Positions 5,641 to 63,604 of a stretch of 64,000 nt of DNA are shown piece by piece. The notes beneath the pieces were generated by a model. That model did no database searches and was not told the origin of the DNA. It saw nothing but the letters and a program-made list of their open reading frames with translations. The stretch is from Octopus sinensis (lineage: Eukaryota), in NCBI RefSeq assembly GCF_006345805.1, contig NC_043008.1, positions 10,416,001 through 10,480,000 on the forward strand, read 5' to 3'. Numbering within the stretch: the first letter of the stretch is position 1; the number at the start of each line of letters is the position of its first letter. Position numbers and translations under genes: made by a program.

Positions 5641-5878
5641 TGGCACGTAAAAAGCACCATCCGACCGTGGCCATTTGCCAGCCCCATCTGGCACCTGTGC
5701 CGGTGGCATGTAAAAAGCACCCACTACACTCACGGAGTGGTTGGCGTTAGGAGGGCATCCAGCTGTAGAAACATTGCCAGATCAGACGTGGCCTGGTGCA
5801 GCCTTCTGGCTTCCCAGACCCCAGTTGAACCGTCCAACCCATGCTAGCATGGAAATCGGGCGCTAAATGATGAATGAT
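5641..5878 (+). mobile_element. RTE-family 3' UTR copy (5'-truncated LINE or partner SINE) with (GAT)n tail
   Basis: Same sequence family as 19779-20035, 25158-25605, 57310-57665, 61975-62340 (+) and 860-1000, 26805-27060, 33363-33515 (-). Ends in ccatgctagcatgg...aaatgatga. Confidence 0.8.
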
Positions 5879-8491: not shown

Positions 8492-9120
8492 CATCATCAT
8501 CATTTAATGTCTGTTTTCCAAGCAGGCATGAGTTGGACAGTTTCATCAGAGCTAGCTAGCCAGAAAGCCGCACCAGGCTCCAGTCTGATTTGGCATGGTT
8601 TCTATGGCTGGATGCCTTTCCTAATGCCAACCACTTTACAGTGCATGGGGTGCTTTTAACGTGGCACCACATGATCACTTTTATATGGCACCAGCATGAG
8701 TGCTTTTTACATGGCACCAGCACAGGACTTTTGCAGGCCAATCCTCTTCACCAGACGGAGCGACCTAAACACTTCTGCTGTGGAGTACGGGTATTCTTGA
8801 GTACAGCAAGGTACCAGGTATCTTAGTTCTTTGTCATCTTGTCTGAGATTGTCCTTCAGTACTTCATCCCATGTCTTCCCAGATCTCCCTCTTCCACATG
8901 CTCCATCTACTTTGAGAGATTGGCACTTCGTTATGGAACTGTTGGCATCCATCCTCATCACACAACCAAGCCAATGCAGTCTTCTCTCTTGCATACTGCA
9001 TCTAGTTCTTATGCCTAACTTCTCTCTCAATACACTAGCACTTGGTCGAACATATACACTTACACTATACATCCAGCAGAGCATACTAGCCTCATTCCTC
9101 TCTAACTTTTGCATTGCTTT
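8492..9120 (-). mobile_element. 5'-truncated RTE LINE: ORF C-terminus plus 3' UTR and (GAT)n tail
   Basis: ORF 8707..9114 contains ERRLHWLGCVMRM...GRGRSGKTWDEV (RTE C-terminus) and runs directly into the abundant (GAT)n-tailed UTR repeat. Confidence 0.85.
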
Positions 9121-10677
9121 AACTTACCTCTTGTTATTCATGCTGGGTGGCATCTCTAAAATACAAAGTCTATGAACTTAGGAGGTTGTTGGCAGCTTTT
9201 CCAAGGTAAAACAATCCAAGTGAAGTGAAATCACTCTCAAGAACTAAAACTAGGCTACAGATTTTACTTACTGGTAGTTTATATCTACTCTTCTAACTTT
9301 TAGAACTGAGTGAATATTTTTTATTAAAAATTTAGGATATTTGAAAAGTAGTTGTTTACACATAGCAATCATATTAAAGTATTTTTTAGTAATAATAAAA
9401 AACAAATATTAAACATCTTGAAGTTTGAAATATTGTTAAAAACTAGTTGTTAAGAGGAACAATTTGACCTGAATTATTTTATCCATTTACTGTTGGGATT
9501 AACTGTAGCTGAGATATTTGTCTTCTTTTGTTAGTGAGTGGTCATTGCAGCAATTCTTTTCTTTACTTCTCTGCCATTCATTCATGCTTTCTTTGTTTAT
9601 TTTTAACTCATAAAAAATTTCCTGGACATTGGCTTTAAAATTGGTTTGTGTATTGGTATAGTGAAGCATTATAAAGCTTTACAATAAAGTATTTTCCCCA
9701 CTTGTTGTCAAACGCTGAATAGGTTACTTACCTCCAGGTTCAGTTACATCTTCAAGTAAGTCATATATTTTTAACTTGGAAAACAATTCTAATTTCTCTA
9801 GTTATTTCTTCCATTGTTTAAATATCTTCATTTATATATTTCATTTATATTTTCTGATTCAATCATGATTTAACTGCTGTCAGTAGCAGTGTTTAAATTT
9901 TAATTAAAATTTAGTTTTCACTTTATATAGTAGGTGTGTATGTTTAGTTGTGTGCACATGTTTGTATATATCTATATATTAAATGTATGTGTGTGTGTGT
10001 GTGTGTATTTGTGGTCTTTTAATTAGATAAAATGAGAGTTTATTTTCATTCCTAAATGCTGGCATGCGGTGGATGGGAATTTCTGAAACAGTATTTTAAT
10101 GCTGAATACCTTTCTTGATGATAACCCTTTTAGTTACCTCTTATGATATAGTCATACAGTGTGCCTATTCTAAAAACTAGGACTCACATATATACTCAAA
10201 CATGCTATTATATATGGTGAACAGAGTATATATCTATAATTTATATCTATGATTTAATAATTTCATATTTTAACAAACTGCATAGTATTCATTATTACTT
10301 TTACTCTCAATCCAGAAGTCAAATTATTTAAAAGTTATTTTAGATTTTTTCCTTAATACATAAAGAGTTCAGTTACATTATTAATTAAAATATTTATAAA
10401 CATGTATTATATATTTAAAAAATCTTATCTTTCAGAATAAAAATATGACTTGAAACTTGAGTCTTTTAGAAAATGTCTTTGATTTATCAAGTAATTTTTC
10501 ATTAATAAATTGACTTATTAAAATTCATAGAATCAAATATTGTAAGAAATTGAAACCAACGAATGAAATTAAACACTGAACATCTAAGTCAGTACTCAAA
10601 TTGGTTTGTTAATACTATATAAGCATTTTAGTCTAATACAAGCAAGTATTTAAAACCTAATTTTTCAAGTTAAGGTG

Positions 10678-13645: not shown

Positions 13646-13893
13646 AGTTTGGTTGAATGGCCCTTACCAGGGTAGAAAGTAAATCTATCTTGATTATTGT
13701 TGGAGACAAAAGTCACAGGAATAGGTTATCAATGAAAGAAATTATGTCGTTAGTTATGGCAGTATACTGCTTTACTGGAGTGCAATATAAAATATATTTG
13801 ATCTCTAAATTAAAAAAAAATATTATTGTAATATTATATATATATATAATATATATTGATAAAACGGTAAGATAACAAGATATTATCCAGTTA

Positions 13894-14903
13894 ATGAAAC
13901 ACTTCGGACTTAGTATAACTATAGACACTAACCTGACGGTTGTCAATTTCTTAGACGTTTCCTTAGATCTTAATAATAATATTTATAAGCCTTATAGGAA
14001 GCCCAATGATAGACTAAGTTATATTAATGTAGGTTCATGCCATCCCCCTATAGTATTCAAAAATTTAGTTAAAAATATTAGTAAGAGGATTTCTAGCCTC
14101 TCATCTAATGAGGACATCTTCAATAGCGTTGCCCCAGTTTATAATAAAGCTTTAAAAGATAGTGGTTTTAGCGAAAAAATAAAATATACACCTATCACCA
14201 GCCCAACAATAAGGAAAAGGAATAATAGAAATAGGAAGGTCATCTGGTTTACGCCCCCTTACTCACCCGAGGTGGCCTTCAATATAGGTAAATATTTCCT
14301 AGCACTGATAGATAGACATTTTCCAGTTAACCATGCTTATAGGAAACTCTTCAATAGACACAATTTAAAAATTAGTTTTAGTTCAACTACCAATTTTAAA
14401 AACATAATCAATCATAACATACAAAAAACACAAGAAGAAAACAGCTGTTCATGCAGGAATAAAGAATTGTGCCCGCTAAATGGAGCTTGCATGTCCAAGA
14501 CCATCATATATGAAGCTACCGTAAACTCTATAACCACTAAAGACACCGTTTCGACGAAGAAATACGTGGGCCTGACAGAGGGTAATTTCAAGGCCAGGTT
14601 CGATAACCACACTTTGAGCTTTAGGCACTGGAACAAAAAAAAGCGACACAATTATCCAATCACATTTGGTCTTTAAGAGATAAAGGTGTCGATTATAACA
14701 TACAATGGAAGATTTTGGCCAGATGTAAGCCCTATACTAACGGCAGCGGAAGGTGCAGTTTATGCGACATGGAGAGATGGCTTATCTGGAAAAGCAGCTT
14801 AGACCCTACCACATGTCTAAATACAAGGACAGAGCTTTTCGGATCATGCCCACATGTGACTAAATTTCTGTTACGTTTTTGGTCCCCTAAAGAAAACGGA
14901 TAG
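13894..14903 (+). pseudogene. PLE RT C-terminus and GIY-YIG endonuclease, one frameshift
   Basis: NFLDVSLDL, YRKPN, SCHPP, IWFTPPYS, CSC..CPLNGAC, IIYEA...YVGLTEGNFKARFDNH. Adding one A to the A8 run at 14635-14642 restores KKATQLSNHIWSLRDKGVDYNIQWKILARCKPY...CSLC...LNTRTEL...CPH, joining ORFs 13894..14676 and 14715..14903. Confidence 0.9.
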
Positions 14904-15098
14904 AACATGCTTTCTGTGTTATGTCCCAAGAAGATTTTATATATTTTTATATATTTTTATATATTTTTATGTATTTTTATATAATTTTTATGACGAAAAA
15001 TGCGAGCGATGTATAAGTACGCAGGCAAAGCAGAGTTATAACAGAGTAATTTCCCTTCATTTTTAACGGTATTTTTTCATAACGTTTTTCAAATAGCC

Positions 15099-15161
15099 AG
15101 ATAACCGAAGAGATGGTGTTGTGGATTTCCACTTCGGCATCTGAAACTCAGAGTTTTATCT
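15099..15161 (+). ncRNA. Hammerhead-ribozyme-like motif (type I) in PLE 3' UTR
   Basis: AGATAA-CCGAAGA-GATG...CATC-T-GAAAC-TCAGA-GT-T-TTATCT. Stem I AGATAA/TTATCT, stem II GATG/CATC with an inner GTGG/CCAC hairpin, stem III ACT/AGT. Core has C at U4. Confidence 0.65.
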
Positions 15162-15190
15162 TGACTACCGAGTAATGTAACATATTGTAT

Positions 15191-15229
<39 letters not shown>

Positions 15230-18200
15230 TGTTTCCAAGCTTGTGTATGTTTAGAAATCCCAAACAAAATTCCACATGCTTTGTGTCTAGTTTGATAGGT
15301 TTGGTTTATTCCTTCACTTTTCACCTTCTTCAGTTTTTCCCTCTTTCATGTTTTTGGTTTAACAAATTATATTATGGTAAGATACTGAATCCTATCATCT
15401 TTTAAGGAGTGTAATGGCTTTGCATTAGCACGGCTCCAGTTGTCTATTATTTATTTACTAGTGTAACCATACTGTTATTAACAACAGTTGATATATTTAT
15501 CTTAGAGAAAATTATAACAAAATAAATTTAAAATACAGAAAACTATTCATTTTTAGATATAGCCATTGTAATTGACTTTACATTAAATAATCTTGAAAGA
15601 AAAAAATATTTGCCTTAATTATACAGAAATTTCAAATAACTAAGATCTTTCTGTCAATGTATTATATTATTTTTCTTGTGGTACTAAGTCCTTAAGAATT
15701 TGCTATTGGAGATATCCAGCTATACATTTTTACTAGTATCCATACACTTACTTGGTTGTAGGTCACTCAGTGAGTATGCAGCACACAGTGACTGTCTAAT
15801 CATTTTTCTTTTTTGTTTTTGTTAAATTCTCTTCAAATTCAATATATACTCTTTGCATTATTTAAAATGTTTTTAGTTACACCAATTAATGAGACAATGA
15901 TTTCAAACTACAACTTTAAGTCCTTTAAACTTTAAGCGTGATAATTCTTTTTCTCTTCTTTCTCATCCAGTTTTTTTTTTATGTAAACCCCTATGCAAAT
16001 TATAACTCGTCTTTGTAAATGTTCCCTAAATTCAACACTCTTTTGGCAAATAAAATAAATTATTATTTTTATTGAACAAAACTCCCTGTAGTATTTATGT
16101 CCTTTTTATGTTCTAAGCCTGAATCCTGTCAAGGTTGACTTTATCTGTTATTCTTTCAGGATCAATAAAATAGTACTAATGAATACTTTTATTCACAATA
16201 TTCAAATCTATAATTCATTTGGCCATAAAAAAGATAATTGAAATGTACTGTGTGATTATTACACAGTTTGCCTAAGATGTATTTCAAGGTAATGTATCAT
16301 TGCTCAAGATATTTATCTCAAGGGTTTACAAAGGGTTCATCTCAAGGTTTACAAAATATTCAGAGTGAAGAGGGTGAACTGGCAGAGTTGTTAGTGCATC
16401 AGCTAGAAAGCCTTGTTGTATTTTCCTAACTCCCTTTAGACAGACACTGTGTGCTGCGTACTGGGTGACCTACAGTCAAGTAAAAGTGTGGACACTAGTA
16501 AAAATGTATAGCTGGATATCTGCAATAGCAAATTCTTAGGGAATTCAACTTTGCCTTTCATCCTTTTGGGGCTAATAAAGTCCTAGCACAGGGCAGTGGA
16601 TTGATGGAATTGTTGAAATGTCTGATGAAATGCCTTGTGATTATCAGTACTCTTTAGTTCCTTTCTGAGCTCATATTTTGCCTTCTATAATCAACCCCCT
16701 CATAGTAGGAAATGAGTCCATGGGGCCCAGTTAATAGTGTTAGGCTGCCAATGTAAGATTGAATAATGCAACAATTAGTGCAACATCTCATTTGCATAAA
16801 TAAAAAGAGTGAGTTCTGCTCTTTCTAGGATCAATGGTAGGACAGAAAATGCAGTTAATGAAAAGAGAGTTCTTTTTGCTTTTGAAGTTCAAATTGGTTT
16901 GAAAGTTTCCAATAATTGGTGACAGTGGGTTCCATATATCATGATAAAGTTATATTACATGGTTTTTCATGATTATTTGTGATTGGCATTCATAATTAAA
17001 GTACTTTCAAACATTTTAGAAGAATACTATCAAATCTTAACCTTCTAAATGTTTTTCTGTCTTACTCAGAAGACAGGCAACTTTTATTGTACTGTCTCTG
17101 AGATTGGTGGGTGGGAAAGAGATTTGTTCAAAATGACTTGAAACAGAGTTGACTCAGGAGATAGATGGTAGGGGTTAAGTTACACAATGAATAAAATCTA
17201 TCCTCCAAGAATAGACACGATCCATCTAATAGTCTTCTGCACAGTGTCCATTTCCCCAATTTCATCCACAAATCTTTGGTTATCCTGAGGTTATGACAGA
17301 AGGCTCACATCCAAGATGGTACAAAATGATATTGAATCTGGAACAACATTATTACAAACAAGCTTTTTAACCATATAACTATGTCTGTACCTATACAGAG
17401 AAGAGTCAATGAGTACATATTTTGTAAATCATAACCAGATTTTTTAAAGATACAGTGTTCAGTGTTGCTAGAGTGATATTGAAGAAGTATACAGCCAAAT
17501 AATAAAAATAGAAATTTAAAAAAAAAATCCAATTATCAAATCAAAACAAGTAGTTAACTTTTATTTTGAAATGTAGTTACAAACAAATCTTTTTTATTAA
17601 GTAATATTTTTTCATTTCTTTTTTGTTATCAAAAGTTGAATATAGTGATATTTTCTTTTGTTTTTCTTAATGCATTTACAGTCTATACATATTTTGGCCT
17701 TTTGATTCGCCTATTGCAGTACTACCTCCTCTTTAGGCTCATATTTGTGCATAATTTTTTCCTCTAATGCTCTAATGTATAACAACATACAAAAACACTT
17801 TGAGTTCACAATTTATAATAGATTGAATTGTTGTTGTTGATGTTGTAGCCAATACATTATATTTTTTATATTCATTAATACCCTTAGTACAACTCTCACT
17901 GTGTTTGGCTCACCTTTCATCTCTCAAAGCCTGAAAGTTAGTACCCATAATGTCCTGAAGAAATTCAGGTTACCAGAAATTTGTGCCTTTATGTCCAATC
18001 CAAATATCATTAGTCATGTACTGGGATTGATCTAATCAACTAAACCCTTCCTCCAAATATCAGGCTGTGCCAATGTTAGAAACAATTACTATCATCAATA
18101 GGGATGATGGATAACAAAATTGGTAGAATTTTGGATATCTTTTACGTCCTTTTAAGTTCTTGTTCATATTACCTCTTGGGGTCAGTCTTATGTTTCATTT

Positions 18201-19544: not shown

Positions 19545-20497
19545 CTACTGCTATTTTTAATCCCAGGAGAACGCTTTCTCCAGGTGGTTATTTGATGCAA
19601 TCTGCCCCTGATATATATTGCAAGCAGGGGAGTGAACTCCTACCATCTTCCAGCCACAAGACTACCAGACTGCATGGTTTTGACCTCTCTGTAGTCATCC
19701 TTGGTGGTGAATACTCATCCACTAAAGACAGCAATAGTTCACTTCAGTTCGCAATATATAAAAATCAAGTGACACACAATTCCATGCTGGTGGCACATAA
19801 AAAGCACCAACTGGTCGTGGCCGTTGCTAGCCTCGTCTGGCACCTGTGCCGGTGGTACGTAAAAAGCACCCACTACACTCATGGAGTGGTTGGCGTTAGG
19901 AAGGGCATCCAGCCATAGAAACATTGCCAGATCAGACTGGGCCTGGTGCAGCCTCCTGGCTTCCCAGACCTCAGTTGAACCGTCCAACCCATGCTAGCAT
20001 GGAAAGCGGACGTTAAACGATGATGATGATGACGATGACACACAGAGATTGATCTTGCAACAAGCAAATTAGCTTGTGAGAAAATCTCAGTAACAAATGA
20101 AAGTAGTAACTATACTAAGAAGTAATATTCATTGCCACTTGAACATAGCTGTTCCACAGGAACCTATGTTACTGCTGTTTTTAACCCTAGGATTTTTTCA
20201 AGCTAGCTAATTTGCTTGTTGCAAGATCAGTGACTGTGTGTCACTTGATTTCTATATATTGTGAGATGAAGTGAACTACTACTGTCTCTAGCAGATGAGT
20301 ATCCACCTCCGAGGATGACCACAAAGAGTTTGAAGCCATATGGTTTGGTGGTAAGATGGTAGGGGTTCACTCTCTTGCTTGCAATATATATCAGGTGCAG
20401 ATTGCATCGAATAACCAGCCAGTGGAGATGTCCTTCTGGGGTTTAAAATAGCAGTAATATCAGTTCCCATGGTACAGCAATGTTTAAGTGGCAATAA
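19545..20497. mobile_element. Old inverted pair of a ~358-nt HHR-bearing non-coding element (PLE pLTR / retrozyme-like)
   Basis: Left arm (with an insertion) is the reverse complement of 20190-20460; ORF track shows NPRRT...MQSAPDIYCKQ on opposite strands. Decayed HHRs at 19662-19709 (-) and 20303-20351 (+). Confidence 0.7.
19779..20035 (+). mobile_element. Young RTE 3' UTR insertion with 9-bp TSD
   Basis: TGACACACA at 19770-19778 and 20036-20044 flanks a (GAT)n-tailed copy. Confidence 0.85.
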
Positions 20498-21628
20498 TCA
20501 TTACTTCAAAGTAACTTTTGTTGAATAGTTAGGCATAATTAATTTTCTTATTTATACCCTTCTCATTTATTTTATTCAATATCCTTTGTTACTTTCTTAT
20601 AAGATAAAATTCATATCCAAAAACTAATTCTATACTTTAGATATAAAAATGAAAGATATTCGACAGAAATGTTATCTCCTAAGTACAAAAGAAAGAATGC
20701 AAGAATTTACAAACATTTTCCTTAAAATAGACACATTTATGTAAACCCACATGATATATTAATGTTCTTTATAACTTTGAAAGTAGGTTAAAGAGAAAAA
20801 AAAGAAAAAGAAGCTATATTTTCTATTTTCTTTATAGCAAATTTGATATCCCACCCCCAATATTTTTGATTAGAAGCAAGGGTAATATTTTGTTGTGGGA
20901 AATCATATAGTTGATTGATTACTGGTATTTATTTCATCGTCTGTGTAGGGATAAAAGGCAAAGTTGATTCTGAAAGGGGATTAAACTTCAAACTAAGAAA
21001 GAAGAAATGAAATACCTTAATGCATTTATAGTATAGTAACCTGTTGGCCTTTCTAATTATAAAGAAAATATTGGCTTCTTTACCTGTCACAAAGGTCTAT
21101 TATAAGAAGGCATAACAGAAAAAGAGATATTTGGATGTTCATAGCTTTCACAGGGGCATTAGCAGGATGAAGTGAAGTTGTATCAATGAAGCACTGAATT
21201 GCATTACAACCATAACTGACTGGAAGCTTGTATCTTGTTTTACAGTATTTATAAATAAGATATTGATGACAAATGGAATATTGATGTTAGAAGGGGGAGA
21301 GAGGATTTTTTTTTTTTGTGTTTCCATTTACTGACCACCATAAAAAATAATGACATGTCTTAAGAAATAAAAACAAAAGAATTGTACAGGTATATAGTCA
21401 ACACCATATATTTATATAATTTGTATATGTACATGTATATGTACTAAGAATAAGTTTAAAAATTAATATCTAACCTATAAAATTTTTTATATATCTTATC
21501 AATAACGAAGAATTATTTTGGGCTAAGTTGAAGATTAAATTTTCAGAATAAAAAGTGTTGTTGTTTTGCTTTTTAGCCCTTGCTCAAAGGTATTCCAACC
21601 ATAATCATCCTGTCTTTTTAGGAGTAAA

Positions 21629-23922: not shown

Positions 23923-23988
23923 TTACCTTTGTTTTAAAGTGAAAGAGAGGAGAAAGTGGAAGATGTATGAATGTGCATATGAAATGGA

Positions 23989-24038
<50 letters not shown>

Positions 24039-24304
24039 ACTTACACATACATGAGAACACACATGTTCACTAACTCTTTCTCACACACACATATACATGC
24101 ACGCATATATACAAAAACGATGTGCGCATATTTATTGATGTATGTACGTATACATGACAACACACCCATTCACTCACTCACTCACTCTCTCTTTCTCTCT
24201 TTTTATCTCTCTCTCTCTTCCTCTCTTTCATACACACATCTGTTTCATATATACGCACATACATCTTTCACTTTCTCCTCTCTTTCACTTTAAAACAAAA
24301 GTAA
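23923..24304. repeat. Inverted repeat, ~110-bp arms, ~150-bp spacer
   Basis: ttgttttaaagtgaaagagaggagaaagtggaagatgtatg is the reverse complement of catacatctttcactttctcctctctttcactttaaaacaa with one mismatch; pairing continues into the GA/CT tracts. Confidence 0.85.
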
Positions 24305-39060: not shown

Positions 39061-39500
39061 GGAAATTTCAATCCTGGGTTCTCATTCCTAAGGTTTTTTT
39101 TTTCGATGTTATTATTATTATTATTATTCAGGTCACTGCCTGGAATCGAACTTGGAATCTTGGGGTTAGTAGCCTGCAATCTTAACCACTATCCCATATC
39201 CCTGTGGACAATTATGGAGTGAAATTTAGGGCTTATAAATCTAATATTTTCCTATCCTTCCTTAATTGCGAGTTCGATTTCAGGCTGTGACCTGATTTAT
39301 AATAATAATAATAATAATAACAATAATAACATTGAAAATTACCTCAGGAATGAGAACTCAGGTTCGAAATTTTCCCAAGACACCTAATGAAGGCTGGAGG
39401 GTATATCAGCTGAAACGTGTTAACAACAAGTAAGATGAGGACAAATATCTGTCAAATGTAAATAATGTATATAATTCTTCATCTCTTAAATATAGAACTG
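39061..39500. mobile_element. Inverted pair of tRNA-like/(AAT)n/HHR element
   Basis: Minus arm 39061-39260 with tRNA-like head. Plus arm from the B box at ~39270 through (AAT)n to a decayed HHR at 39380-39420. Confidence 0.8.
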
Positions 39501-40626: not shown

Positions 40627-40845
40627 AATGTGACCTCGTGTGTACCGTTGGCAATTTTTTTTCCTCCGTCTTCCCTTCTTTGGATCTTTCCTTTTCCTAT
40701 GTTTCTGACAAAGAGCTCCGCTCGAAACGTTAAACCCTCCTTCTTTCCTTCTTTCCTGAGCGTCCAATAATACTATACTTGTTCCACATCCTCGCATTGT
40801 TGTGTTTTCTCTTTGGGTTTTTTGTGTTTTCATGTTTGGATTAAC
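40625..40845 (+). mobile_element. PLE pLTR-like fragment with minimal HHR
   Basis: GTTT-CTGACAA-A-GAGC-TCC-GCTC-GAAAC-GT-T-AAAC at 40701-40735. Sits in TA microsatellite. Confidence 0.72.
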
Positions 40846-40866
40846 TATATATATATATATATATAT

Positions 40867-40980
40867 AACGGGAAGCTTTATGAAAATAAACAAAAGACGA
40901 AGGCAGGTGGAAAACAAACGAACAATTGTATTAGTATGGCGCTCAGGAAATATAATAAAACAAGTCTTTAACGTTTCGAG

Positions 40981-40983
<3 letters not shown>
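40867..40983 (-). mobile_element. Related pLTR-like fragment with 3' half of HHR
   Basis: Minus strand aggctcGAAACGTTaaag...ttcctgagcgcca.actaatac parallels 40720-40775. Older copy at 61598-61775 (-). Confidence 0.62.
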
Positions 40984-41034
<51 letters not shown>

Positions 41035-43285: not shown

Positions 43286-43728
43286 ATATATGTATATATG
43301 TGTGTGTGTATATATATATATATATATTATAATAAGAGATATATGTGTGTGTGTGTGTGTGTATGTATATATATGTACATATATATGATATATGTATATA
43401 TATACATGTATATATTTATGACATATATATGTATGTATATATGTATATATGTGTATATGTATATGTATGTTTGTATGTGTATATGTGTATGTATATATAT
43501 ATATATATAATAATAATAAATCTCTGAGTGAGATATAAACAGTAACTGCTCTATAACATAAGGGGTATCAGCCATCTGAATGTGGCTAGGGACAGGGCGG
43601 GGTAGTGGGGGTGTTACTGATGCATTTAGCCCCAGGCGATCATCAACGTCACCAGAAGGGCTGACACCATCTCGGTGTCCTTGCCAGCCTGCAAAGGGAG
43701 ATCAGCCTCCCCGAAGATACGGATACTA

Positions 43729-43771
43729 CATACAGACCGGTTTCGAGGTATTTGCCTATTACCAACGCATG
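43729..43771 (-). ncRNA. Hammerhead motif, probably inactivated copy
   Basis: CATGCG-TTGGTAA-TAGG-caaata-CCTC-GAAAC-CG-GTC-TGTATG; A6G in the core, palindromic ACCGGT stem III. Confidence 0.7.
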
Positions 43772-44078
43772 GTAAGCACCGTTCTTTGTTGAGGGACTTC
43801 CTCTACAGGCTGGATATATATGGATTTTCACAGTAACCACAGTCACTGATGTAGAAAAACCGTTCGACAACAATAATAAATCTCTGAGCGAGCCCTGTCC
43901 CTAGCCACATTCAGATGGCTGACCCCCCTTATGTTATAGAGCAGTTACTGTTTATATCTCGCTCAGAGATTTATTATTGTTGTCGAACGGTTTTTCTACA
44001 TCAGTGACTGTGGTTACTGTGAAAATCCATATATATCCAGCCTGTAGAGGAAGTCCCTCAACGAAGAACGGTGCTTAC

Positions 44079-44121
44079 CATGCGTTGATAAGAGGCAAAT
44101 ACCTCGAAACCAGTCCGTATG
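44079..44121 (+). ncRNA. Minimal type-I hammerhead ribozyme with U3-A8 core
   Basis: CATGCG-TTGATAA-GAGG-caaata-CCTC-GAAAC-CA-GTC-CGTATG. Stem I 6 bp (one G-U), stem II 4 bp, GUC cleavage triplet. Confidence 0.8.
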
Positions 44122-44720
44122 TAGTATCCGTATCTTCGGGGAGGCTGATCTCCCTTTGCAGGCTGGCAAGGACACCGAGATGGTGTCAGCCCTTCTGGTG
44201 ACGTTGATGATCGCCTGGGGCTAAATGCATCAGTAACACCCCCACTACCCCGCCCTGTCCCTAGCCACATTCAGATGGCTGATCCCCCTTATGTTATATA
44301 TATATATATATATATATATGTTTCTTTCTTTTGTGTTATGCTAAGAAGCATGTGCAATACCAGATAAATTTATATATAGAAATTAAGACATGTGCTCCCA
44401 GTAATACATCCGATATATCTGTATGATCACAAAATAATCCAAGAACATTTAGCATTAAGTCAGAATGTTCAGAGTTATGATAATAGTCTTCAGGATTGAT
44501 ATACCAATGTCCAATATTTCAGAAATCTAACAAAAGAACTAACATATATGAAAATTACTTATATTTACTCGGACAGAATTGTTTTCCCCAACAGCAAACT
44601 TAACTAATTTCATTAGCAGGCTTCAAAAAAAGTGATGTGGTGGTACACACATACGTGCATGATGGAATCTCCATCGGTTATTCAGTCAGGAGAATTCCTT
44701 CTTATGAGATTGACATCTAA

Positions 44721-46161: not shown

Positions 46162-46294
46162 CATTTGATGGATATTTGTCCTCATCTTGTTTGTTGTTAA
46201 CGCATCGTTTCGGCTGATATACCCTCCAGCCTTCATCAGGTGTCTTGGGGGAATTTCGAACCTAGTTTCTCATTCCTAAAGTTTTTTTTGTTAT

Positions 46295-46390
<96 letters not shown>

Positions 46391-46660
46391 TCACTGTCTG
46401 GAATCAAACTCGGATGCCATATGCCCATGGGCATATGGTGTAGTGGTTAAGAACGTGGGCTACTAACCCCAAGATTCCGAGTTTGATTCCAGACTGTGAC
46501 CTTAATAATAATAATAATAATAATATCAAAATGAAAACCCAGGTTCGAAATTTCTCCAAGACACCTGATGAAGGCTGGAGGGTATATCAGTCAAAATGTT
46601 GTGTTAACAACAAACAAGATGAGGACATATATCCGTTGAATGTAAATAATGTAAATAATG
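46162..46660. mobile_element. Fold-back pair of tRNA-like/(AAT)n/HHR element
   Basis: Arms meet at the 22-bp palindrome CCATATGCCCA|TGGGCATATGG (46417-46438). tRNA-like head 46429-46501. HHRs at 46200-46243 (-) and 46561-46604 (+). Same family as 39061-39500. Confidence 0.85.
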
Positions 46661-58299: not shown

Positions 58300-60880
58300 G
58301 CATGTGTATCTTCGATTATAATTTTAAAAGATATATGTTTTTTATGGACTTCCAGTAATGCATGTGCAATGATACACAGTAATTGACTGGGGTGTTACCT
58401 GCAGCGTACCTACACATATGTGCCCCATTGGCTTTCTTTCCTCTTAACTTTTAAAAAAATGAATATTTTTTAATGAAATTTTCTATTAGGTCATCTAGTA
58501 TGAAATTTGTAGAAAAGAAAAGAAAGTTTGCTAATGTTTGTTTTATAAATACAAGGAATAGTTTTATTCATCAAAGTATGCATCCATATTGTCAGTACAC
58601 TTTTGCGATTTCAGCAGTAGCTTGTCCAGCCTGGAACTGTAAAAGCTTGGCAATCTAGAGTCAATAAAATCTTGGAAGGCCTGTTTTACAGCATCATCGA
58701 AATTAAATTTTTTTCCTATCAAAAAGTTATCCAAATTCTGGAAGAAGTGGTAGTCAGTGCAGGTGAGTATGGTGGATGATAGAGAACTTCCAACTCCAAC
58801 TCCTGTAGTTTCGCCAATGTCATTTTTGCAATGTGTGGTCTGGCATTGTGTTGCAGTAAAATAGGAATGGATCTGTTGACTAATCTAGGTTGTTTTTTGT
58901 AAGCTTCTGCATCATTTGGTCCATGTTTTTTGTAAGCTTCTGCATCATTCGGCCATGATTGATGAGTCTGGTTTAATGAAATCATAAGGGATCACACCTG
59001 CACCAGACCACGAAACACACACCATCAGCTTCTTTTGGTGAATTCTGCTTTTCGGACTGTGTTTTGGTGGCTTGTCTTTGTCCAGTCATTGTGCTGAAGG
59101 TTTATAGTTGTTTATAGTTGGATCCATTTTTCATCACATGTTACAATTCGATTAAAAAATTATTAGTTTTTGTGATGGAAATGTAGCATAATGCAGGCTT
59201 CCAAACGCTGTTTCTGATTTTCATTGAGTTTATGTGGAACCCACTTATCCAACTTTTTCATTTTATCAATTTGAACTAAGTGAGTCAATATTGTTTGCTT
59301 GCTAACACCAAACAACAACAATAATTCATAGGCACTTGGAGGTGGATCTGACTTGACGGTGGCTTTCAGTTCGTCATTATCCACCTTTGCTTCTGGTTGA
59401 CCGTGTTGCTCATTTGTGCGGTCAAAGTTACCAGAACAAAATTTTTCAAACCAATTTGATACTGTCTGCTGTGTAATAACATTAGAATGAAATACTCCAT
59501 TAATATTCCGAGGTGTCTGTGATACTGTATTTCCAAGAAAGAACTCATATTTCAAAACTGTACAAATTTCTGACTTATCCATCTCTAAACAAAAATAACA
59601 AAAAAAAGATTTATAAATACTTTATAAAGTACAAAATGAGTTATAATAAAAAAAAATAGATGTGTCAGCTTTCTAACAAAAAATATTGTAAAAATATAAT
59701 AATGGTGCAAAATAAGCAGCTGTCAAAGTTTACCTCTCTAAAAATTTCATACTTGATGACCTAATACAAATATGTTTCAGATAGTGTAAATTCCAATTAT
59801 AAGGGAATTTGTTGTGAAAAAATTTTCCAAAAAGAATGTGATGTATGTCAGTATATATGTAAGGTATTCCACCAATTTTTATTGGCATGCTAAATTTTGA
59901 AGTAATCATTATCTATATACTCTGAAAAAGTATCTGCTGAAATTTTCATTTCAAAAACCCATTTTCCCTAAGGTTATAAGGAACAAGGCTGATGTGTATG
60001 AAGCTCCTCTCTCCATTCATTCAAAAACATTTTATTCACAACAAATTCTGATATAATCAGAATCTACACCATCTGAAGCATACTTGTGGAAGATTTCATT
60101 AAAAAAAAACAACATTTTTCTTGAAGTTAGGAGGAAATAGTTGGTGGTACACATTTGTGTATGTATATCCACTGCTTTAATATGAGCATCTTTGATTATA
60201 ATTTTAAAAGATACATGTTTATTATGGACTTCTGGTAACACATGATATACAATAACAAGCCACAGTGTGGTGTTCATGATCAGACTGCAGTTTTTGTGTA
60301 ATGTGTAGATTCCAGTAATATAAAAATTTGTTGTGAAAATATTTTTGTGAGGATAATGAGAGGAGTTTCAGAAAATTTACACGAGTTGGTTTTGTTTCCT
60401 CATGCCTTTCAGAAAAATTGATATTTTTTCATGAAGTTTTCTACAAATACCTTTCAGAATGTATGGATTACAATTATTTTGGAATTTAATATGAGAAAGA
60501 ATTTGGTGGGATAGCACTTGTACATATATACATCATGTATATCTACAAAATGAAACTTAGTTTCGAAAAAATTGTGATGTGTGTCATTATGTATGTGTGT
60601 GTGTGCTCACTATTTTTTTCCACATCAAATTCCTATATAATCATAATTTACGCACCCTGAAAGACATTCATAGAAATCTTCATTTAAAAATATCCATTTT
60701 CCCAAGAATTATGAAGAAACAAAGCCAATTTGTGTGAATTTTATGAAACTCCTCTCCTCATTCTCCCCACCAAGAAATTCCAATATAATTGGAATCTACA
60801 TCATTTGAGGCATGTTTGTAGAAAATTTCATTTAAAAATATCTATTTTTCTGGAAGTTACAAGGAAACAGTCAATAAGGC
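58300..60880. repeat. Degenerate mixed direct/inverted repeat array hosting the mariner
   Basis: The unit gaaattttctacaaata...tcaga..gtgtagattcca recurs in both orientations. 58316-58380 resembles 60196-60255; 59935-60110 resembles 60660-60860 and is inverted at 60300-60470. Confidence 0.65.
58486..59764 (-). mobile_element. Full-length defective mariner (cecropia/Hsmar1-like), 1279 bp
   Basis: 28-bp TIRs ttaggtcatc(t/a)agtatgaaattt(g/t)taga, TA TSD on both sides. Transposase fragments with WVPHKL, HNARPH, HPPYSP. Frameshifts and a 33-bp internal duplication near 58890-58955. Confidence 0.93.
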
Positions 60881-61540
60881 ATATTTGTGAATAAGTAATA
60901 CTAAGATTACATTGCTATTATATATCTACATATTGGCTTATTTCAATTCACTTTCATTTAGTATGTAACAAAATTTTATTACATAACTGCATGTTACATA
61001 TAAACAAAGAATATACTTCTTTCATTTTGTTTACATCAAAAGAGTGACAATAATGTGAATGAGATGAACTTAATTTTTCCCTGCACATAAGCATAAATAG
61101 AATAATGGCATTGTGTTTAGTAATGAAAACTAACTATATTGAAAATGCATCGTTGTGTGTGTATCTTTTATCTTTTACTTGTTTCAGTCATTAGATTGTG
61201 GCCATGCTGGTGCACTGCCTTGAATTTTTAGTTGAATGAATTGACCGCAGTACTCCCCTTTTAAACCTGGTACTTATTCTATTGGTCTCTATAGCCAACC
61301 ACTAGGTTACAGGGATGCAAACATACCAACACTGGTTCTCAAGCAGTGGTAGGGGGACAAACACAGACACAATGACATGCACACATAGATACACACACAT
61401 GGCATTTTTTACAGACTTTACAGTGTTCACAGAGCACAGAACAGCAGTCATGATGTTAGCAAGTTGATACCTGGTATGAAACATCTTGATATAAGTAATT
61501 TTTTCCCAATATTCAGATGGCTTCCAGTCCTCTATGTCAG

Positions 61541-61578
<38 letters not shown>

Positions 61579-63604
61579 GCTGTGTGTATATATATATAGG
61601 GAGAATTCACAAAAATAAGATGAAGACAGGTGGTGTAGACAACAAACAGATGTATTAGTATAATGCTTGAGAAGTGAAAAAATCTTTAACGTTTCAAACC
61701 TACACTCTTCCACAAAAAGGAACACAGAAAGAAACAATGCGACAAAATAAAGAAAGTGTAGTGGCTAGCGACCTATATTGGAAAAAAGTTACCTGTATCA
61801 TGATGGTTCTTGCCTGGTATCAAAATGCCAACATCATGACTGCTGGTTAATTCTATGTGATCACTGTAAAGTCTGTAAAACATGACATGGACAGCTGTAA
61901 TGAATGTGTTGTATTGAATGTTTTGTTTTTTTTAATAAATATCAATAACTGTCTTGCAAGTTACTTGGTTACCTTGCCAGTGTTGGTGCCACATAAAAGC
62001 ATTTGGAAGGGCATCTAGCTGTAAAAAAATGTGCCAAAACAGATTTTGTTTGTGCTGGTGCTATGTGAAAAACATCTGCTCCACTCTGTAAAGTAGTTGG
62101 CATTAGGAAGGGTATCCAGCTGTAAATACTATGCCAAACAGACCTTGCTGGTGCCATGTAAAAAGCACCTGGTACACTCTGTAAAGTGGTTGGAGTTATG
62201 AAGGACATCCAGCCGTGAAAAGCATTCCAAAACAGACAATGGGGCTTGGTGCAGTCCTCTTGCTTCTCAGTTCCTGTCAAACCATCCAACCCATACCCGC
62301 ACCCATACCAGCATGGCAGACAAACATTAAATGATGATAATTATTAAAAAATTCCTGACAAAAGAGGGTTTTAACAACCAATATAAATTTAATTACAGGA
62401 TTTCTGGATTATTGTTACATTTTATTTTTGTGATGTTCACATTCATATATTTTGTTTTTATACCTCAGGGTTGAAGAAAACCTTTATTCCACTGTTACCC
62501 TTTTTCTGCATGAATGCACAATTTTGGTCTAAGTTCTGGATGTTTTCCTGTATTATTCAAAATTTTCAGGTGATGCATTTTATGGTTATTGCAATTCATT
62601 TATTGACAGTAATTCAATAAAGCCAGTCACTTCTAAACACAGCTGAGAGAGAAACCCAATAAGTCAATACAGAACTTGTTTGACTGGGGAGTTTAAAAGA
62701 AAATACAATATTTTGTTTATATGAATTCAATATCATTGAGCATCATAGCTTTGGAAATCTATAATTGTTTACCAAACTACTCATGCATGAATTCTAGTTG
62801 CGAGTTAGCTTCAACTACTATTGTTTTAGTATATGTCACATGTTGTGGTTCAGGATTATATAAAAATGATATTTTTTTATGACAATAAATGTAGAAAAGG
62901 TCATCTTTGATCGGGCCAGAACATTATTGCTGTACATCCCTATTATTTGATTAGAACATACAACATGAATAATTCAACAGGAAGTAGGGAATGTTTGTGG
63001 TCATTTGAAACACATAGTGTGTCATTTAAATTAGATGCACACTAATGGATATTACAGTGATCCAAACATATATATTTATTTGCATTTTTTATTAATGTGA
63101 AGTTCACATCAGTAATTTTTAGAAGATCATTAAATAAATATTTTCTGTATTCTTTTACTTGTTTCAGCTATTGAACTGTTGCAGTCTACCTTCAAGGTCT
63201 TTTTCAGTCTATCACATCAAGCCCAGTACTTATCTCGGTCTAGTAGTTATTTCATTGATTTTTATTTATTGAACAGCTTTGTTACCTTTCGGCATAAAGG
63301 GATATAACTCAACAGAACAGCATACACAGATTTCTACACACACCTTGATGTAGAGAACTACATGTCTTCTATTGTATGTGTGTATGTATATAAAAATTAA
63401 TAAATGACAAAAAGGACAAGTTACTTAATTACCTTCATTAGCTTATAGTTGTTTCTGCTATAAGAAGTCATGCACTCAGAGCTAGTGCTCATGCAACGTT
63501 ATATAGCTTCCTTGAAGCCATTATAATAAAGTGTACATTTATTTCTGAAAGCAGTTAAATATATAGAGCTGGTTACATTCAGAACCATGAAATTATATAT
63601 ACCT

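Follow-up and report, generated by a model that had tools for sequence, protein, structure and literature searches.

The element at 19546-20513 of the window (the whole 64,000-nucleotide stretch that was analysed) is best explained as two decayed copies, placed head to head, of a 358-nt hammerhead unit that is multi-copy and non-coding. We read this unit as a non-autonomous PLE derivative, a retrozyme-type mini-PLE that was likely copied in trans by a PLE RT/EN, and give this reading a probability of about 0.72. Taken alone, the old element is a single dead representative of a type already known, and its value is comparative. Together with a younger relative in the same window, it displays the retrozyme-type features that persist, namely the length, the ribozyme fold and a single 3' end.

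Architecture of the old element and of its copies

The host window is AT-rich, microsatellite-laden animal DNA, possibly octopus-like to judge from its SINEs. Self-comparison of the window gave three inverted matches, which pair 19546-19778 with 20235-20456 (78% with gaps, E = 2e-52), 20036-20086 with 20191-20243 and 20113-20190 with 20436-20513. They bear out the original prediction of an antisense arm followed by a diverged sense arm. The minus arm, read from 20190 to 19546 with a 266-nt insertion excised, is 379 nt long and comprises the 358-nt unit plus a 21-nt direct repeat; a period of about 358 nt after removal of the insertion had been predicted, and the period after excision is 358. 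With unit positions counted relative to A9 of the hammerhead, the 5' part of this arm (20045-20190, minus strand) starts at -226 and includes a stretch (20087-20112) that occurs in the minus arm only and closes the 358-nt circular permutation, while the 3' part (19546-19778, minus strand) covers -80 to +152. The direct repeat at 19546 and 20170, likewise predicted for the left arm, is identical at 18 of 21 positions, compared with 13-16 for the best 21-mer self-match in 40 shuffles. Its copy at 19546-19566 (minus strand) is a terminal redundancy, the second copy of the stretch with which the minus arm starts.

The plus arm (20191-20513, plus strand) runs from -122 to +209 and has an 11-nt deletion after 20352. 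According to the self-comparison, the two arms abut head to head (5' to 5') at 20190/20191 with zero spacer, and about 2 nt at this joint fit either arm. The contig depth is down to the level of the flank at 20515, and this edge moves the 3' end of the plus arm from the predicted 20497 to 20513. The plus arm overshoots the end of the minus arm by 57 nt (the tail; 20457-20513, plus strand). Over 317 positions aligned on the doubled unit the arms are 84.5% identical (268 matches, 49 mismatches), a difference of 15.5%; 36 of the mismatches are transitions, 13 of them in CpG context. The unit has a GC content of 0.40 and contains no RT + GIY-YIG frame, and in the doubled unit no sense stop-free frame is longer than 51 amino acids. 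Only 1.06 units stand in tandem at the old locus, where no two consecutive hammerheads were seen.

The insertion in the minus arm is bracketed by an exact 9-nt TSD (19770-19778 and 20036-20044, both on the plus strand, with an offset of 266). The sequence between the repeats (19779-20035, plus strand) is SINE-like with a (GAT)n tail. Copies at 5641 and 25344 share about 90% identity with it, and its 3' part matches 8492-8668, a stretch downstream of an RTE-like frame, at 80%. The predicted '266-nt RTE insertion plus TSD' therefore stands as an insertion with a TSD, while its RTE label is tentative and comes from motifs of the related frame; a Pfam search of this frame gave no match. By the same motif, 8492-9123 (minus strand) has the appearance of the 3' end of an RTE-like LINE, and it is the DNA downstream that resembles the inserted SINE.

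Long inverted arms around a short non-palindromic middle could also suggest a DNA transposon of the MITE or foldback type, bounded by long terminal inverted repeats. However, the ends are offset by 57 nt; they would be flush if the minus arm reached 19504, but this longer arm lacks significance, 61-65 of 297 controls having as good a score. There is no flanking TSD, the 7-8-nt candidates with one mismatch being at chance level. Further, the middle is a permuted piece of the arm, the arms bear a hammerhead and the inversion joints differ between copies. In the lack of flush TIRs, of a TSD and of a fixed internal layout, the MITE reading is largely refuted and we regard it as highly improbable; the prediction of permuted, non-TIR ends is upheld. 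There is similarly very little to recommend a juxtaposition of the arms by two unrelated insertions or by a later inversion of a tandem array. The 15.5% difference between the arms and the lack of a TSD linking them to one event would accord with such a history, but the arms abut without a spacer and with an overlap of about 2 nt, their differences are mostly transitions, as expected of decay after insertion, and the same build is seen in the young element and in at least eight other joints listed among the contigs described below.

Evidence for a multi-copy family comes from contigs of four DNA runs (three organisms) that were aligned to 20040-20600 at a likeness of at least 80%. All four runs contributed, with 955-1299 contigs per run, and the depth over every part of the unit is tens to more than 1000 times that of the flank, a ratio that is not a copy count. 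No RNA record was among the listed data sets that carry the sequence, an outcome that carries no weight either way. Among the joints listed (15 rows and 12 letter rows), at least eight are head-to-head joints at other places; three of the head-to-head joints listed occur in all four runs. The 5' starts at the joints listed scatter from -191 to +169 from A9, and none is at the cut site (+31). One tandem joint with a period of about 359 is also among those listed, its letters known from one contig of one run, and a similar 'goes back 300' joint was found in three of the four runs without its letters. The combination of variable inversion joints with a tandem joint of period about 359 indicates that this is not an ordinary MITE.

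Two segments, 20211-20248 and 20363-20419, have 5-30 times more contig depth than the other parts of the unit, which suggests that they are common to larger related families, possibly the helper. Depth of this kind is what would be seen if the segments were common to longer relatives of which the old element is a stump, that is, a pLTR and a short piece of the body of an autonomous PLE, whose 358-nt wrap arose on a single occasion through a template switch or a local duplication, without any self-standing unit; an inverted truncated copy with a tail is, moreover, a standard PLE insertion (PMC8557442). We nevertheless consider this quite unlikely. The wrap recurs in another copy with a period of about 359, and the young relative wraps in both arms. 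In run X2, 23 contigs have loose ends before 20203 that are like the linking segment and unlike coding sequence, and the short longest frame of the doubled unit (51 amino acids) points the same way. The 358-nt unit is better read as a self-standing, multi-copy element.

The hammerhead motif

Both arms contain a decayed copy of a type I hammerhead. The minus-arm copy (19662-19710, minus strand) retains 9 of 12 Watson-Crick pairs, is decayed at four of four CpG sites and is changed at core positions 5 and 12. The plus-arm copy (20303-20351, plus strand) retains 8 of 12 pairs and has the core CCGAGGA at 20309-20315, with C at position 4 (20310), an extra nucleotide separating position 9 from 10.1 and a predicted cut after 20345 (unit position +31). 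Neither arm alone gives a hammerhead fold (z = 0.03 and 0.62). The suspected CpG-type nature of the defects is supported, since seven of the eight CpG sites in the two copies have decayed and 13 of the 36 transitions between the arms are CpG-type.

The hammerhead was restored by giving the old copy the seven commonest other letters of the family, as taken from the contig variants. With these letters, 12 of 12 Watson-Crick pairs form in stems I-III (MFE of -18.3, z = -2.5 against mononucleotide shuffles); stem I has 6 bp, stem II has 4 bp with G10.1-C11.1 and the cut site is GUC. The restored 15.1-16.1 region is a perfect 10-nt palindrome. In the predicted folds the helix III of the monomer has a near-zero probability, and in the cofold a 10-bp intermolecular helix III joins two molecules; the C at core position 4 also permits a slipped stem I that buries C3, and this is seen in the cofold. 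Of the seven letters, four form the majority in every one of the four runs and three (20338, 20341 and 20345) in only one or two of them; the minus arm independently has five of the seven. The original prediction of a complete hammerhead fold with a palindromic stem III is therefore supported as to the fold, with family letters, and as to the palindrome. The core is not canonical, having C (20310) in place of the U at position 4 of CUGANGA. The catatg of the original reading is a CpG-decayed form of the loop-3 hexamer, for which CGTACG is the better reading.

In the minus arm, position 5 has decayed from G to A, which implies that position 4 was C there too. No C-to-T change at 20310 appears among the 40 of 87 contig variant rows listed, and a minority U could still occur. 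Given this C, cutting by the hammerhead would probably be slow. The U4C change lowers activity in vitro yet supports viroid infectivity (PMC3088659); a literature search for 'U4C' hammerheads returned the viroid mention in that source only, which does not establish absence from PLEs. A descriptor that demands CUGANGA would miss the old family. A relaxed hammerhead descriptor listed neither old copy at a score of at least 7, and its counts are barely over those of shuffles (18/4/2/1 for the real sequence and 4-12/0-4/0-2/0 for shuffles). Searches of the window and of the old and young elements with Rfam covariance models, at E values of up to 5-10, gave no match to a hammerhead family; the best Rfam matches in both elements were to hairpin miRNA models and fell below the gathering score.

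In metagenomes the family-specific pattern was found at 0 loci. A shorter hammerhead motif was found at 66 loci (67 matches), and blastn at E = 1e-3 showed no similarity of any of them to the old element. Among the 67 matches, 40 have T and 19 have C at position 4, and none of the nine 'CC' cases passed a strict stem filter. An inspection of 30 of the 66 loci for long frames revealed none that is RT-like by eye, and local inverted repeats occur at nine of the 66 (some being duplicates). Five unrelated AT-rich metagenome contigs (L059, at 396-610, L015, L042, L055 and L063) carry a hammerhead half-motif with U at position 4 in a back-to-back or inverted arrangement, with two motifs back to back in L059 (396-610). 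Seven viral-contig matches to an 18-mer were also found, and none continues as a hammerhead.

Relationship to a younger 360-nt element

A younger related element with a 360-nt unit lies at 43509-44298 in a (TA)n tract. It is also built head to head, both of its arms exceed one unit and wrap, and its hammerhead has a U3-A8 core. Its arms differ at 9 of 383 positions (2.3%), compared with 15.5% for the element at 19546-20513, which agrees with the prediction that the latter belongs to an older family. With the ribozyme as the anchor point, the old unit is colinear with the young one from end to end, with an identity of about 60% (201 of 333 aligned positions). None of 500 dinucleotide shuffles reached the old-young score, with or without the ribozyme. 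Among real-window controls, 0 of 1358 reached it in either direction with composition-adjusted scoring; with plain scoring 0 of 2036 did so against the young unit, and 6 of 2036 matched the old unit as well as the young unit did. The best non-self matches of the old unit in nhmmer are the two young arms (E = 0.008 and 0.015), and the reverse search was not significant.

Further similarities were found at a finer scale. A 13-mer is common to both units at the same offset (0-1 of about 2700 controls); shared short words near the diagonal are a weak indication, their sum statistic being attained by 52-188 of about 2700 controls. The plus arms of both elements end at +207 to +209, with tails of 57 nt (old) and about 43 nt (young). 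Between the old and young stems I and II there are six double changes with the pairing kept, in addition to the change from C3-G8 to U3-A8. The statistics are modest, and taken together the sequences suggest that the two units likely share descent and that their nearly equal length (358 and 360) was likely inherited from the shared ancestor. The old family had been described as sequence-distinct; this does not agree with the colinear alignment at about 60%, the result of 0 of 1358 composition-adjusted controls and the homologous stop of the plus arms. Of the proposed successive waves by one mechanism, the shared head-to-head build is supportive and a single mechanism is plausible.

A size-constrained RNA intermediate had also been proposed from the lengths of about 360 nt. 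If the units are homologous, 358 and 360 are one observation and not two, and such a constraint does not follow from them. The same consideration applies to the reading that independent hammerhead families converged on about 360 nt and that a circular RNA intermediate of this size is required. In its favour are the two periods, arms that cross the cut site (one exceeding a unit), the circles of 330-400 nt of mussel and axolotl retrozymes (PMC7229834) and the circular folds of both units, which are better than those of mononucleotide shuffles (z = -4.7 and -4.4, with 16 control windows ranging from +1.4 to -3.8 and two of the 16 at -3.2 and -3.8). Such convergence is nonetheless unlikely in our estimation, as the units appear to be homologous and thus not independent, published units span about 170-400 nt (PMC7229834) and 51-972 bp (bioRxiv 10.64898/2026.07.22.740005), and no arm spans two cut sites, so that a linear transcript of about 435 nt would be enough. 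A size limit cannot be argued from equal monomer lengths in different families unless common descent is first excluded.

Several other features were observed in the window. A PLE-like RT/GIY-YIG fragment at 13876-14903 has an Atlas score of 0.96 and falls with HTH_animal and GIY-YIG clusters from molluscs, echinoderms and cnidarians; Pfam did not name this frame. The frame as a whole (13876-15190, plus strand) is 5'-truncated, consists of an RT end and GIY-YIG with a frameshift near 14630 and ends in (TA)n. A hammerhead-like motif is present in its 3' UTR (about 15099-15160); stem I of this motif has 6 bp, helix III is nearly palindromic and core position 4 is again C. Another inverted hammerhead family is represented at 46162-46642 and 39061-39475, with a canonical CUGAUGA core at 46565 (plus strand) and 46239 (minus strand); its arms meet at (ATT)n tracts around a short segment that is tRNA-like by eye. 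Hammerhead-bearing PLE-like stumps adjoin (TA)n at 40680-41000 and 61520-61780, with a motif at 40705 (plus strand) and a partial one at about 40970 (minus strand), and the 61.5-kb stump lies inside a different inverted repeat (61398-61512 and 61775-61889). A decayed mariner-like transposase (59163-60890; Pfam HTH_48, E = 3.5e-12) stands beside a complex set of inverted repeats, and further local inverted pairs of unassigned kind are at 15686-15799 and 16436-16545 and at 23923-24035 and 24194-24304.

Proposed mechanism and comparison with known systems

In the mechanism that we propose, a tandem source locus of more than one unit would be transcribed, and hammerheads with a 10-nt palindromic helix III would cut as a dimer, perhaps yielding circles. 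A PLE enzyme would nick AT-rich DNA, reverse transcription would begin at internal RNA sites from both DNA ends and the two 5'-truncated cDNAs would join 5' to 5', the offset of the starts giving the tail. The SINE inserted itself into the minus arm at a later time, and both ribozymes were disabled by CpG decay. Each arm reads across the predicted cut site and one arm exceeds a unit, which excludes a linear cut-to-cut monomer as the template and leaves either a ligated circle or a tandem transcript that stayed uncut. As no arm extends over two cut sites, about 435 nt of such an uncut transcript would serve as well as a circle. An autonomous partner that shares sequence with the 358-nt unit was not found in this analysis. 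The PLE fragment at 13.9-15.2 kb had no match to the unit in nhmmer and cannot, given this lack of DNA similarity, be assigned as the helper.

A broader and more tentative proposal, which we hold possible but doubtful, is that a single lineage of PLE-dependent mini-elements went through about 40% divergence and at least two amplification waves without loss of its length (358/360), of the place where its RT starts (+207 to +209 from A9) or of its hammerhead fold, and that over this time whole stems were exchanged and the core shifted between two non-canonical forms (C at position 4; U3-A8). If true, this would be a natural experiment for selection on a circular, slow-cutting, dimer-gated RNA template, and it would include a family-wide U4C core in an animal retroelement, hinted at in the 3' end of the window's PLE too.

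Metazoan non-LTR retrozymes form circles of about 170-400 nt, with PLEs proposed as helpers (PMC7229834; Cervera & de la Pena, 2020), and are characterized by a non-coding unit of about 150-450 nt with a GC content below 50% (PMC7229834). More recently, retrozymes were reported to derive from pLTRs, with units of 51-972 bp and with one of nine tested elements cutting (bioRxiv 10.64898/2026.07.22.740005; Li, Clavereau & Pollet, 2026). The old unit resembles these elements in being non-coding, 358 nt long and of 40% GC with one type I hammerhead, in having more than one unit per insertion and a predicted self-paired fold, and in the presence of PLEs in the same genome; no LTR, PBS or PPT was seen in the old element. 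It differs in that its copies are head-to-head arms of 0.9-1.06 units and not tandem arrays, an inverted architecture that we did not find described in the accessible portion of PMC7229834, and in that its ribozyme is PLE-like (an extra nucleotide after A9, a long palindromic helix III and C at position 4). The old copies would also fail the 2026 rule by which an 'active' retrozyme has two consecutive intact units. Membership of the old element among retrozymes is incomplete, as it is known here from its sequence and no tandem intact units were seen.

In PLE insertions the 5' end is often occupied by an inverted copy that is itself 5'-truncated, and there is a tail of 30-40 bp (PMC8557442), the latter explained by two internal RT starts (PMC11167929). 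Dual hammerheads lie 100-700 bp apart on opposite strands of PLEs and are marked by an extra nucleotide after A9, a palindromic helix III and U3-A8, and a circle has been proposed for more-than-unit copying (PMC4209133). The old element is like truncated EN+ PLE insertions as described in these sources in its inverted 5'-truncated copy joined at the 5' end, its tail on one arm, its variable 5' starts, its dual hammerheads a few hundred bases apart on opposite strands and its AT-rich target, and its hammerhead has an ATG at A9/stem II, as in Poseidon of Anolis. Unlike those insertions, it has no RT or EN sequence and its unit wraps on itself at 358 nt, and the old and young tails (57 and about 43 nt) exceed the published length. 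The ribozyme itself corresponds to the minimal, dimeric type I hammerhead of PLEs (PMC4209133) in its 6-bp stem I, its 4-bp stem II, the nucleotide between 9 and 10.1, the palindromic 15.1-16.1 region and GUC; it departs from that type in the 10-nt length of its helix III palindrome and in the C at position 4 of the ancestor of both arms, the latter being a likeness to the natural U4C variant of a viroid (cited in PMC3088659). Active Penelope families are reported from Octopus vulgaris in a paper whose accessible part does not mention ribozymes (PMC13282606), and a literature search on hammerhead ribozymes in octopus gave no such element at the level of titles and the start of abstracts.

Head-to-head arms with a tail and hammerheads on opposite strands are an already published PLE signature, and retrozymes of 170-400 nt are likewise known. 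For a PLE of Anolis, uncut RNA is the main substrate in vitro and cleavage is dispensable there (PMC11167929); against this background, the old element bears on whether PLE enzymes move retrozymes and on whether cutting or circles are needed. Judged by sequence features, it likely acts like a PLE-mobilised retrozyme, and is neither an autonomous PLE nor a MITE.
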